IMG/VR virus record: IMGVR_UViG_2880378312_000006
DNA: 64,000 nt
Reading direction: 5' to 3' (one strand)
Source: a virus
Lineage: Duplodnaviria; Heunggongvirae; Uroviricota; Caudoviricetes
In this document: in pieces, positions 15,001 through 21,000 of the stretch
How positions within the stretch are numbered: position 1 is the stretch's first letter
Layout of the letters: each line of letters starts with the position of its first letter
Position numbers: made by a program

Positions 15001-18000
15001 TCTGCCCTGTAACGACAGCTAAATCCATTGACAGCCTCAGCCAGATGGGGAGGTGCTCAGCAGCATGGTAAATAGCGACATACTCATTAGCTGTCAGCCT
15101 TGAGCGCCTTACTTCTGACTTTGCTGCACGGGTTGTTGTTACTGGATTCGTTGCCACATGCCCCTCGGCTATTGCCCCTCGAAAAACGTCAACAAGGGTT
15201 GACCTGATTACTCTTGCGGAAACCGCTTTACCTTCTGCGACGTAGGTGTTTAGCATTGCTGCCACCTCTTTCGTTGATATGTCAGTGAGCGGTTTGTCCG
15301 GCAATTTTCTTCGAATTGCCCTGATTTTGCTGGCGTAGTCGAGTAATGTTTTCGGCTTGCTCCCCCTCTAGCTGAGGATTGTTTCATATCGATCAAGCCA
15401 CGTATGAAGAGTGATTGAGTCAGTGCCTTTAACCCTGTCCAGCAATGATTCGTGCCCACTTTCGCTGAAAAGCTCAATGTTGGTGTGAATTCTACGAGCA
15501 ATGAAATGCCTCGTGGAAGGATGCAGTGATGATTTTAATCCTTTTGATATTATTAGGGTACCAGATCTTACTTACAACAAAGGATCTTTACAATGTGGAT
15601 GATTAGAGGCCTGTGAGCCTGTTTAGGATTCTGTGTAAATGCCTTTTCTTAAAAGTGACCGTCAAGACGGTCACCAAACTCGATAATAAAGCGGCTCATT
15701 GCCATTCGCCAGTCCCTTAACGGCATTGTCCATTTCTGTGACGCGGCCTGGATTGCCAGCCACACCACTTTTTTTACTGACTCGTCCGTCGGGAACACCT
15801 TGCGTTTCCTGATGGCATGCCGGATCACACTGTTCAGCGACTCGATGGCGTTCGTTGTGTAGATCACTTTGCGGATATCTGCCGGATAAGCGAAAAACGT
15901 CGCCAAGTTAGTCCAGTTTGACAGCTAGCACCGGCTTATCTGCGGATAGCGGCAGTCCCAGGCCGCAGCAAACGCTTCCAGTGCCTGCTGGCCTGCCTCT
16001 TCTGTGGGAGGCTAATCGCTTTCAGGTCGCGAGTGACGGCTTTGTATTCCTTCCATGACACGAAGCGCATGCTGTTGCGCACCATATGCACGATGCATAA
16101 CTGGATGCGGGCCTCCGGGAATTCTTTCAGGCCATACACACAGGCGATGAGGATATCGTTCAGACCGCGGTTTTTCAGTTCAGTCAGCACATTGAACCAG
16201 AAATTCGCCCCTTCATTTTCGGCCAGCCGCATCCCCAGGAGCTCTTTCTGACCTGCGATATTGATGCCCAGTGCTAGGAACATTTTTATGATAAAAAATT
16301 AGTGCAAGAAGACAAAGAATCGCCTTGCGCTAATGCTCTGAAACAGGTCACTAATATCATCTAAATAGTTGACTCATAGTGACAGCATGTGTTGTGTCTT
16401 GCAGTATTATATAGCCTATTATTTAGATTGAAGCCATCATAATCTATTGATGTTAATGGTTTTTTATTGTTTGTTGTTCGGCTTTTTATACTAATTTGAG
16501 CGAAACAAAAAGATAAAAAGTTGTTTTTCGGTAAGCGTACAGCGAGGGCCGTATTGACGGGGATGTGTTATTCAGCTGGCAGTGCTATGCGCCACGGAAG
16601 CAGTTCGCTGACCCGGTTGACCGGCCAGTCTGCTATGACGCCAAGCACATGGCGAAGGTAGCTTTCTGGATCCACGTCATTCAGTTTGCACGTCCCGATC
16701 AGGCTGTACAGTAGCGCTCCCCGCTCACCACCATGATCAGAGCCGAAGAACAGGAAGTTTTTACGACCCAGACTGACCGCCCGCAGGGCATTTTCAGCGA
16801 TGTTGTTGTCGATTTCCACCCAGCCATCGTTCGCATAGTACGTCAGTGCCGGCCACTGGTTAAGTGCGTACGCGAACGCCTTCGCCAACTCTGAGTGTCG
16901 CGACAGGGTCTTCATCTTTTCACGCAACCAGCTTTCCAGGGATTTCAACAACGGTTTCGTTTTTCGCTGACGTTCAGCAAGCCGCTGCTCTGCCGGCATT
17001 CCCCTTATATCCGCCTCTATGGCGTACAACTGACCGATCTGCTCCAGGGCTTCTTCCGTCAGTGCTGACGGGATGCGGACGTGCACATCGTGGATCTTTC
17101 GGCGGGCATGAGCCCAGCAGGCAGCTTCCGTTATCCCACCATTGCGATACAGCTCGTTGAACCCGGCGTACGCATCCGCTTGCAGCACACCGCTGAAGCA
17201 GGCAAGATGAGTCTGCGGATGGATGCCTTTTCTGTCCGGGCTGTAAGCGAACCACACTGCAGGTGCCAACGCTGACCCTGCATTGCGGTCATCACGAACA
17301 TACGCCCACAACCGCCCGGTCTTCGTCTTCTTATTACCCGGCAGCAGTACCTGGACCGGGGTATCATCGGCATGGAGTTTGCCGTCAGTCATGACATAGC
17401 CATGAAGCGCCTCTTCCAGCGGAGACAGCAGCCGGCAGCATGCATCCACCCAGCCCGACAGCAGTGAACGCCTCAGCTCCACACCTTGCCGGCCGTATAT
17501 TTCTGACTGGCGATACAGCGGGGTGTGCTCTGCATACTTCGAGGTCAGCACGCGGGCCAGCAGCCCCGGTCCGGCGATACCCCGCTCGATGGGCCGCGAA
17601 GGTGCAGGTGCCTGCACGATGGCATCGCACTGAGTACAGGCATGTTTTTCCCGTACCGTCCGGATAACCCGGAAGGCGCTACGCATCAACTCCAGCTGTT
17701 CGGCGGTATCCTCGCCCAGATAGCTCAGTGAACCGCCGCAGTTCGGGCAGCACGGCGCCGCAGGCAACAGTCGCTTTTCGTCACGGGGTAGTGATTCAGG
17801 GAACGGCTTACGGGTGCGGGTCTGACGCAACGGACGCTGTACTGCCGGGTCATACACCCTACCAGTCAGCGTATCGCTCTCTTTCTGAAGCCGGTTCAGA
17901 TCGGCTTCCATTTGTGCGATACGGCGGGAGACTTTTTCGGAACGACTGCCGAAGTTCATCCGGCGGAGTTTATCCAGCTGCGCCTGCAGATGGTCTATTT

Positions 18001-21000
18001 CGCGCTCCCGGTTGCTCAGCTTTTCCTGCAGGGCGTGGATCAGCGCTTCCTGTTCGGCCAGGCGCTGTTTCAGCAGGAAGATGTCGTCAGAAGAGATGTC
18101 GTTCATAAGCCCGTATTTTACCGGGCTTATTCTGTGACAACCAGGATAAAGAGATTTACAGCATGGTCAGGGAGGTCAGCAGCCGCTTAGGCTGTCGCCA
18201 GTCGATACCTTCCAGCAGCATCGCCAGCTGCGCCTGCGTAAGGAACACTTTGCCATCACGGGCTGACGGCCAGGCGAAGCGCCCACGCTCCAGCCGTTTG
18301 GTCAGGAGGCACAGTCCGTCACCGGTGGACCACAGCAGTTTAACCTGACTGCCGCTGCGGCCCCGGAAAATGAAAACATGGCCGGACATGGGATCGTCTT
18401 TCAGCGCCGTTTGTACTTTCGCAGCCAGGCCGTTGAAGCCATTTCTCATATCGGTGATACCGGCAACCAGCCAAATTTTGGTCCCGGAAGGTAACGGGAT
18501 CATCGCTTCAGTTCCTGTATCAGCAGAGTCAGGAGCTTTTCGCTGACATTGCCATTGAAGCGGAGCGTCCCGTGCCGGAACGTTACCTCACAGCTGATAC
18601 TGAGGGTTTCCGGGTCCTCTGCGAGCGATTCTGGCTGTTCGGCAGCTGCATCGAGAGTCACAGGAAGTAGCTGGGGGCTCTCTGAAGAAGGTAATAGCAG
18701 CTTTCCCTCGCGCCATTGTTGTCGCCATTTGAACAACAGATTGGCGTTAATGCCATTTTCAAGAGCAAGTTTTGAGATGGATATCCCGGGTTCACAGGAG
18801 GCAGCAACGAGCTGCTGTTTAAATTCGGGAGGATAATTAGGGCAGCCTTTTCGCCTGCCGGGAGTCACATTTTTCTGCATATCTGATACTTTGGTTCCCA
18901 CTACTTATTTGGTGGACACCACTTTGTCTAATTCGTCAGATTCTGACCAGACGGTTCAGGCTGTACGCTTACGTTTTTCGTGTCTTTAAGTGATACCAGA
19001 TGGTATTGCGCTAAATGTACCAATGGGTATACCAAGAGCACTAAAAACAAAGGGGCAACCACTTTGTAACCCCTTGATTATTTGCAGAAGCGCAGAAAAT
19101 CGAACTCTGGAACCCTTTCGGGGCATCCTTTTTCAAGAATGAAGAAAAAAATAACTAAAAAATCAAGTTGTTAGGAAGTTATTCATGGCTAGTGTACCAA
19201 CTCTTTTCTGGGCTAATAGCTATGATTTGTTTGTATTATTTGTCTCTGTCTCTATTATTTTTGACATCCATGCGACTTCTGATATTGATAACCTCAGTTG
19301 TGGAGTTCTGTCTGCGCTTCCGGGAGGACGCATATCAAAACTACAGGATCTTCTGTTAAACACTGTAAAGCCATCTACATTGCATGTTGTTGAGTCTAAG
19401 ATACAATTTTTAGTAGATGATTTATCTGCTATAGGCCTAGATATTTCAGGTTGATGCCAAGTGTGTCCTGAAAAAATACTTTTTATTGAAAATGGCATTT
19501 TTATCCTCACATTATGTCTTTCTCTTATAGTGCAATTTAATGTATTTAGAAACATTAAACTATGAATCTAAAAAGGCTACGCAGAGTACTGTTACACTTT
19601 AACAAATCATATTTACCACTCTGGAAATGGGATGGCTGGTTCATAAAATAATGAGTCTTTTTCAACGGTTGTTACATTGGTGTACTGATGATTATGCCTT
19701 GTCGCTAAGAGCTACCATAACCGTACAGCGTGATTCATCCATGGCGAATAAATCGACTGATAAATCCCCCTGAGTTTCAGCTCTTGCTGTTGGACCTTGC
19801 CCGTTTCGCTATGGAACGCGTACCAGCTAGAGAATATTATTCGTTCTCCTCCAATGTTACGCAAGTTTTGTAAACGGTAACCAATCGTGATTAGTCCTGC
19901 ATGTAACGGACATCAAGCTGTCTGGTTGATTTTTATTGCCAGTAGTTCGAGAGAGCAGACAACTGCGTCCGATGGAAAAATGGGCACGACAGGGTATTCA
20001 GGCAACCTCGCTGAGGAGGCTTATGGTACAGATTGTAATGTGAAGTATAAAACGTTAAAAATTCCATTTTAGAAACTAAATAGCTGTAATATAAGTTCGA
20101 TCTAATCTACTATTTTGACAGACAGATTGTATCAAGAATTAGGGAGTATGAAATAGATGGCAATAACTAGTAAAATTAATTTTGCAACATTTAAATCGAA
20201 CCATACAGTCAAATTCTAGTGCATATATTTTGTGTGGCTAATATGCAAAAATATTGTTCTATTAGATTAAAATGGCATTCATCTTTGCTGACAATCATTT
20301 CCGGAACAAAGGGTTCACGGCTGAGAGGGTGTGGAGCGTTGCGTCGGATAAGTTCAGTGAGTGCATTGTGGTCATATAATGAACATATTTCTGAGTTTTT
20401 TGCATTTCTGACAAAAACACCAGTTTCAGGAATGCATAATGTTATCGGGCAATTCAGGTGTTGTTCATGACAGGAAAAGTCTTGATGACTAACAGTAAAT
20501 GCATGAGAGTTAATTTTGTTTTGTATTGCACTACTGACGTTTTGGCGCGTACATGGGGTTGCACGGCTCTGTTCCATATATAAACGGAATGCCTGCAAAA
20601 AAGTATGGCCTCTGTTAAGCTGTATCTCCAGATTTTCTGCGAGAAGGCGATGCCCTCTTGCACTAAGGCGATCCAACAGTCCGCCGGAAACCGGTTCCAC
20701 GCTAAAACTGTCCATAAATGAAATATGATGAAGTCTCATAGTGCGGCCTCTCACAACAAGCTGTTCACTCTGACTAACTCTTCCGACATGACGTAAAGCC
20801 TCCAGTTCACTTTCAGACAATACTCTTTCACTCGAAAAGTTTAATATGACAGGCATATTTTCTCCCTCTTTAGTCTATGTTATTGAACCATATTGGTGAC
20901 AGGAGTCAAGATACTAAATATGTGATAGGATTCAAACAAAAAATTAAATTTTGAACGAATGCTATTTACACATGTATTTTTTTAATTAAAATGATTGTAT

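Follow-up and report, generated by a model that had tools for sequence, protein, structure and literature searches.

A complete ISEc8 copy in the ompW prophage of Escherichia coli O157:H7 lies within a fossil lambda attR

When an insertion sequence (IS) stands close to a lambda-type attachment core, the question arises as to which element it is, how and when it arrived, and whether it disturbed an attachment site. We considered this question for a 64,000-nucleotide stretch of tailed-phage DNA (IMG/VR record IMGVR_UViG_2880378312_000006; hereafter the window, meaning the whole stretch analysed), in which an IS66-family element lies next to such a core. We regard it as almost certain that the locus reflects one transposition of ISEc8 into non-coding DNA at the effector-carrying end of a prophage in ompW, most likely on the branch leading to Escherichia coli O157:H7.

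The element at positions 16531-18972 (minus strand) is identified by its sequence as a complete copy of ISEc8, an already catalogued member of the IS66 family, with no sign of a new member, variant or mechanism (Table 1). In a megablast search of 5,426 complete E. coli genomes, its 2442 bp were 100% identical to O157:H7 features annotated as "IS66-like element ISEc8 family transposase", "TnpA" and "TnpB", and 3,848 records had a best match of at least 99% identity to the query. Under the ISfinder convention, copies sharing at least 95% protein or at least 90% DNA identity are the same element; compared with RefSeq-annotated ISEc8 copies, the window copy showed 100% DNA identity, together with the published length and open reading frame (ORF) sizes. 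The G+C content of the element is 56.7%, and that of its flanks is 47% and 37%. Nothing in the analysis contradicted the identification.

The termini point to the same family. IS66-family elements end in imperfect terminal inverted repeats of ~15-30 bp that start with 5'-GTAAGCG. The inverted repeats of the window copy are 22 nt long, begin with GTAAGCGTACAGC, and are complementary at 18 of 22 positions (82%), the first 13 nt being perfect; the repeat finder ranked them as the longest inverted pair of the region. GTAAGCGTACAGC occupies positions 16531-16543, and its reverse complement occupies 18960-18972. The 22-nt terminus was found only once in the 64-kb window, with 0 expected in shuffles, and therefore the window holds one ISEc8 copy.

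Between these ends lie three consecutive genes, tnpA, tnpB and tnpC, all open and all on the minus strand. Against the NCBIfam models, TnpA scored 97.4 bits with the IS66 TnpA equivalog (cut-off 74), TnpB scored 120 bits with IS66_TnpB (cut-off 50), and TnpC scored 459 bits with transpos_IS66 (cut-off 180). At the Pfam-domain level, TnpC has a leucine zipper and a zinc finger upstream of its IS66-type DDE domain, and it matched LZ_Tnp_IS66, zf-IS66 and DDE_Tnp_IS66_C (the leucine-zipper, zinc-finger and C-terminal IS66 domains). Read from a GTG, TnpA has the 133 aa published for L0013; RefSeq gives it 126 aa, starting at the ATG at 18880. The tnpA stop and tnpB start overlap as ATGA within GCGATGATCC, and 49 bp (18107-18155) separate the tnpB stop from the tnpC ATG, as expected from the overlap and short spacer of the family. 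All testable hallmarks that define the IS66 family were found, and the layout is the classical one of the family, as reported by Han et al. 2001 and by Gourbeyre et al. 2010. The tnpB-tnpC spacer also contains a short hairpin, AAGCCCG-GTAAAATA-CGGGCTT, which ends directly at the tnpC ATG and could be a putative occluder of tnpC translation initiation.

The two ends of the element are abutted by the same 8-mer, GTTTTTCG, which we read as a true target-site duplication because an uninterrupted site with a single GTTTTTCG exists in relatives. An empty-site query of 493 bp, in which the left flank was joined to the right flank with one GTTTTTCG, was recovered full-length at 100% identity in O26:H11, O111, O103 and O145 genomes and in deposited PPompW prophage records, and at 99.4% identity in the O55:H7 strain DEC5E; altogether, 80% or more of the reconstruction is present in 248 complete E. 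coli genomes. The 8-bp length is that of the IS66 family, and a second ISEc8 in strain PA20 has its own 8-mer, CTGATGTC. The first-pass annotation had described an intact IS66-family element with three open transposase ORFs, and this description is borne out by the full-length matches to the NCBIfam and Pfam IS66 models and by the complete identity to RefSeq ISEc8. The inverted repeats that it placed at 16531 and 18972, and the perfect 8-bp direct repeats that it placed at 16523-16530 and 18973-18980, proved exact to the base, and the target duplication, which it had named among the points where its reading could fail, is confirmed by the in silico recovery of the empty site.

Alternatively, the 8-mers might agree by coincidence, the element being a hybrid formed by recombination of two ISEc8 copies rather than by simple insertion, and hybrids do occur at this same copy in strains PA20 and 8368. 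The known hybrids, however, have mismatched flanks, whereas both window flanks carry the same 8-mer, for which the chance of identity at both boundaries is ~3-5e-5; moreover, the flanks are contiguous with one 8-mer in the 248 genomes. The empty-site result has already refuted a hybrid origin, to which we assign practically no probability, and simple insertion stands.

The form that hybrids take is evident in PA20 (CP017669), where the left and right junctions of the ompW-prophage ISEc8 lie in opposite orientation with ~400 kb between them (near 3.128 Mb and 3.527 Mb; loci L005 and L006). The hybrid copies there have the swapped flanks GTTTTTCG/CTGATGTC and CTGATGTC/GTTTTTCG, and the annotated regions place the partner ISEc8 inside an IS256-family gene beside nleG7 in another prophage. 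This ~400-kb inversion arose by homologous recombination of two inverted ISEc8 copies, of which it bears the textbook signature. The spacing of the PA20 junctions fits the 399 kb that separate the Sp9 and Sp12 ISEc8 copies in strain Sakai (PMC7430833). Strain 8368 shows the same junction separation, and FORC_044 has a different rearrangement, with junctions 165 kb apart on the same strand. At present, the window ISEc8 serves as a dispersed repeat and, in some strains, as a substrate for homologous recombination. As a documented breakpoint of the ~400-kb inversion in PA20 and 8368, the copy is therefore relevant to structural variation in O157.

The age of the insertion can be approached through its distribution. 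Probes for the left and right ISEc8 junctions were found whole in 285 and 288 complete genomes, respectively. Each serotyped genome among the listed occupied ones was O157, and the split (occupied) pattern was present in all O157:H7 genomes of the sampled listing, including DEC4E, TT12B and TW14359. The occupied site was absent, among listed and sampled matches, from non-O157 enterohaemorrhagic E. coli (EHEC) and from O55:H7 DEC5E, which belongs to the lineage ancestral to O157:H7. From this pattern, we infer that the insertion most likely occurred on the branch leading to O157:H7, and that it represents a serotype-level marker and not a strain-level event. The occupied or empty state separates O157:H7 from DEC5E and from non-O157 EHEC with the same prophage, and is thus usable as a lineage marker. 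The insertion had earlier been called recent, which holds on an evolutionary scale only and not at the level of strains, since ~285 complete genomes have it; the recency had been deduced from nearness to the core, from which it does not follow.

A different route to the same pattern would be import, in which phage-phage recombination brought the insertion in from another lineage, ready-made with the prophage or a segment of it. That this prophage region moves horizontally is shown by the flanks of the insertion, which unrelated serotypes share at 100% identity, and O157 lambdoid prophages recombine extensively. Against this, among the listed and sampled matches, the serotyped occupied sites are all O157 and the non-O157 sites, that of DEC5E included, are all empty, so that we consider import unlikely and prefer transposition on the O157:H7 branch.

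The steps of such a transposition can be outlined from family knowledge. The DDE transposase TnpC would join the 3' ends of ISEc8 to the target at phosphates with an 8-bp stagger, and gap repair after the staggered cut would then duplicate GTTTTTCG, the integration chemistry being that expected of an IS66-family element. TnpA, a helix-turn-helix (HTH) protein, and TnpB are accessory proteins in this family, and IS679 transposition is reported to need both. The IS66-family route, whether cut-and-paste or copying, has been described as insufficiently characterised, and in the recent mechanistic literature on IS66 transposition we found only statements of poor characterisation; the window data do not discriminate between the two routes for ISEc8.

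In O157, ISEc8 and IS629 predominate among the IS elements, and Sakai and FRIK804 have nine ISEc8 copies each, eight of them at shared sites. Copy number varies, with 8-17 matching places per O157 chromosome among those listed. The stx2a::ISEc8 allele of strain 9000 represents a recent ISEc8 transposition in O157, and megablast showed that this strain holds an ISEc8 copy identical to that of the window over 2442 bp. The window copy is complete in structure and does not differ from ISEc8 copies that remain mobile in O157. It might instead be a dead copy with inactivating substitutions in the transposase or the ends, as its inverted repeats are imperfect (18/22). However, imperfect repeats are normal for ISEc8, because identical copies have them too, and the whole 2442 bp are shared with copies in many genomes, among them strain 9000 with its recent stx2a insertion. 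Inactivation is consequently very unlikely in our judgement, and we retain the reading of an intact element.

Several points qualify the account given so far. We infer the activity of the window copy itself from its intactness and its identity to mobile copies. The serotypes of the ~285 occupied genomes were judged from listed and sampled rows. The apparent timing of the insertion rests on one O55:H7 genome with an empty site, and the O55:H7 and O157:H7 lineages could have acquired the prophage separately. In addition, the copy at the same site in O157:H7 strain TR01 differs from the window copy at 2 of 2442 positions; this difference could reflect mutation or gene conversion among copies, in which case the history of the copy would not be perfectly clean.

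Next to the insertion, the core-like sequence previously noted at 16481-16494 is real: it is the lambda core minus one T, GCTTTTTATACTAA. Judged with its surroundings, it represents a genuine fossil lambda attR (P-O-B') buried in the ompW prophage. On the left, an alignment to the lambda P arm and core covers 16284-16498 at ~81% identity over 216 nt, and 16284-16480 also matches the annotated attP regions of HK97, HK106, HK629 and HK630. At the centre, the 15-bp common core GCTTTTTTATACTAA is represented by 14 nt with the T-run one T short, and is thus core-like but degenerate. On the right, the lambda alignment stops at the core and no lambda P' follows; instead, there is bacterial B' DNA, 81-87% identical to the K-12 ybhC-ybhB spacer. 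Positions 4332-4385 of the K-12 locus (L004) align with window 16483-16528, and 4380-4418 align with 18973-19011. Since the homology to the K-12 spacer runs through the ISEc8 target, ISEc8 split a captured bacterial flank of ~90 bp, of which 36 bp stayed attached to the core and 31 bp or more came to lie beyond the element; the core itself ends 36 bp before ISEc8 and 28 bp before the duplicated 8-mer. Consistent with this reading, many E. coli have plain attB flanks that match across the ISEc8 insertion point at 90.9%. The 493-bp reconstruction is also matched over its positions 3-275 by a natural attR of the ybhC-ybhB locus, and over positions 2-275 by phage DN1 (MF374379), which has an annotated attR and a transduced bio locus.

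The insertion had been proposed to separate the att site from its original flank. In terms of sequence it does so, as the K-12 homology reaches 16528 and resumes at 18973-19011, but no consequence is evident, the site being a non-functional fossil. Were it an active secondary attachment site, the ISEc8 insertion would affect prophage excision. In favour of activity, the P arm is conserved, as is most of the core, and the 36 bp of B' still attached exceed the ~11 bp that Int core binding is considered to require in lambda att sites. Nevertheless, the missing T belongs to the run that sets Int core-site spacing, no partner attL with the same core was found in the 64-kb window (the sole other core-like match has 2 mismatches), the closest lambda-like int has decayed to a truncated pseudogene with a different core next to it, and Sp9, as the ompW prophage is called in Sakai, uses a 28-bp core at its true ends for excision. 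An active site is therefore extremely improbable. On the same grounds, namely the degenerate core, the lack of a partner in the window, the int pseudogene with another core, and the excision of Sp9 elsewhere, the fossil attR is non-functional; with neither a cognate attL nor a matching integrase, it marks no prophage boundary.

Two sequences were considered as the partner attL and rejected. The core-like match with 2 mismatches to the lambda core, GCTTTTTTATACAGA at 24848-24862 (minus strand), lies ~55 bp ahead of the ompW fragment; such a match is compatible with chance (0.16 expected per window), and inspection by eye showed no homology to the lambda arms around it. A second candidate, the lambda-like stretch at 14278-15406, was ruled out because its P and P' arms are both present and enclose another core. 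This stretch lies within a second lambda-family att region at 14250-15490, where P- and P'-arm homology surrounds ATCCTCCTTCTGACATGGAAGTTG instead of the lambda core; immediately after the arms comes a truncated integrase of lambda type, with 69% nucleotide identity to lambda int and a match to Pfam Phage_integrase.

The region at 14250-15490 is an unrecombined attP-int fossil of another specificity, situated downstream of nleA, and shows the effector locus to be layered from several phage ends. The block of nleH1-2, nleF and an IS256 remnant ends in a lambda-type attR plus ~90 bp of ybhC-ybhB spacer, which is the architecture of a lambda-bio transducing phage. Part of the effector locus may thus derive from a lambda-like prophage that once resided at attB-lambda, was aberrantly excised with chromosomal DNA, and recombined into the PPompW/Sp9 lineage, a scenario for and against which we see the scales evenly balanced; the ~90 bp of spacer would have been carried along from that earlier prophage. 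If true, the locus would preserve a datable fossil of the assembly of an exchangeable effector locus, with ISEc8 as a later, O157-specific overprint. The ISEc8 insertion helps to delimit the fossil attR with its captured chromosomal DNA, and in this way bears on effector-locus assembly in lambdoid prophages.

Table 1 Features of the ISEc8 insertion and the adjoining fossil attachment site, in window coordinates.
Feature	Position	Strand	Evidence or remark
ISEc8, complete, 2442 bp	16531-18972	-	100% identity over 2442 bp to RefSeq-annotated ISEc8
Terminal inverted repeat, tnpC-proximal end (right inverted repeat, IRR)	16531-16552	+	repeat finder
Terminal inverted repeat, tnpA-proximal end (left inverted repeat, IRL, in element orientation)	18951-18972	-	repeat finder; begins GTAAGCG
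Target-site duplication, left copy, GTTTTTCG	16523-16530	.	single copy in empty site
Target-site duplication, right copy, GTTTTTCG	18973-18980	.	single copy in empty site
tnpA, accessory HTH protein, 133 aa from GTG	18500-18901	-	Pfam HTH_Tnp_1 1.8e-12
tnpB, IS66 accessory protein, 115 aa	18156-18503	-	Pfam TnpB_IS66 1.2e-38, profile positions 2-100 of 101
tnpC, DDE transposase, 512 aa	16568-18106	-	Pfam DDE_Tnp_IS66 2.1e-106, profile 1-283 of 284
Lambda attP P-arm homolog, left part of fossil attR	16284-16480	+	~81% identity to lambda 27529-27742
Lambda-type core minus one T, GCTTTTTATACTAA	16481-16494	+	compared with lambda core GCTTTTTTATACTAA
B' flank, proximal part	16495-16530	+	homolog of K-12 ybhC-ybhB spacer beside attB-lambda
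B' flank, distal part, displaced by ISEc8	18981-19011	+	K-12 ybhC-ybhB spacer homolog
espO, 92 aa	19220-19498	-	EspO name in some RefSeq/GenBank records

The annotated neighbours in O157:H7 TR01 and O26:H11 11368 define the locus as the accessory, effector-carrying end of a lambdoid prophage integrated in ompW, which is named Sp9 in Sakai and PPompW in newer records, and which is CP-933P / O-island 71 of EDL933. Its gene order runs from tail fibre genes through a DUF1076/NleG-like pseudogene, nleA, the decayed tyrosine integrase, nleH1-2, nleF and the IS256-family remnant to ISEc8, followed by espO, nleG, espM1, IS630 and IS3 remnants, and an ompW fragment; the prophage ends at ompW, ~8.4 kb beyond the fossil att site. 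ISEc8 lies ~240 bp downstream of the espO stop codon and interrupts no annotated gene. The EspO protein had no Pfam match, its name being taken from RefSeq and GenBank annotation. A scan for promoter and terminator consensus sequences around the insertion returned fewer sites than in shuffles, and we draw no inference on the expression of neighbouring genes.

Other features of the region were recorded alongside. In comparison with O157:H7 TR01 and O26:H11 11368, 1674 bp are missing from the window at 15490/15491 (TR01 locus L001 15528-17201); the missing DNA holds nleH1-2, most of nleF, a remnant of a tail-fibre gene and the upstream part of the decayed integrase pseudogene. The deletion junction has no convincing microhomology; it is present in 57 complete genomes, and those listed are O157:H7 or unserotyped and mostly from cattle. 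Just left of the att relic, 15649-16283 contains a frameshifted remnant of an IS256-family (Mutator-type) transposase. In PA20, the annotation places an 'EAST1 family heat-stable enterotoxin' ORF inside the corresponding stretch, which suggests an IS1414-like element with astA inside the transposase gene. From 25088 onward (mapped from TR01 L001 26799 onward), a second lambdoid prophage with integrase, excisionase, exonuclease, dicB, cI/cro-like and replication genes directly follows the ompW fragment, and the window therefore spans two tandem prophages. The start and end of the window are more than 95% identical in tail genes (58208-64000 versus TR01 L001 1-5784).

The value of the locus as a discovery is small, in that ISEc8 is catalogued and the copy is listed in published O157 comparisons; the fossil attR is the only, mildly novel thread. 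The insertion at the ompW-prophage site is the previously published Sp9 copy of Sakai, listed there at 1807168-1809609 with 2442 bp (Table S7, PMC7430833). The window copy shares its site, flanks and duplication with the Sakai copy, as do TR01 and the ~285 genomes, whereas the window strain differs in context by the 1674-bp upstream deletion, with nleH1-2 and most of nleF gone. The Sakai Sp9 copy is also the copy in CP-933P / O-island 71 of EDL933.

As an element, the window copy shows no difference from ISEc8 (the ISfinder name; ORFs L0013-L0015), being alike in its length of 2442 bp, in its ORFs of 133, 115 and 512 aa, which are the published sizes of L0013, L0014 and L0015, and in sequence. 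These ORFs were first annotated beside the locus of enterocyte effacement (LEE) of O157:H7 EDL933. With IS66 of Agrobacterium Ti plasmids and IS679 of the enteropathogenic E. coli plasmid pB171, ISEc8 has in common the gene order tnpA-tnpB-tnpC, the ATGA overlap and the short spacer before tnpC, as well as GTAAGCG ends and an 8-bp target duplication. IS679 is longer, at ~2.7 kb, and is otherwise without difference of note. The attachment relic, for its part, resembles the lambda-bio type transducing phage DN1 and the natural attR at the ybhC-ybhB locus, in which P arm, core, B' and ybhC-ybhB-side DNA follow in the same order. Unlike DN1 and the lambda attR, the relic has a core minus one T and a flank of ~90 bp with no bio or ybhB genes, and it is situated within an ompW-integrated prophage, a long way from attB-lambda.

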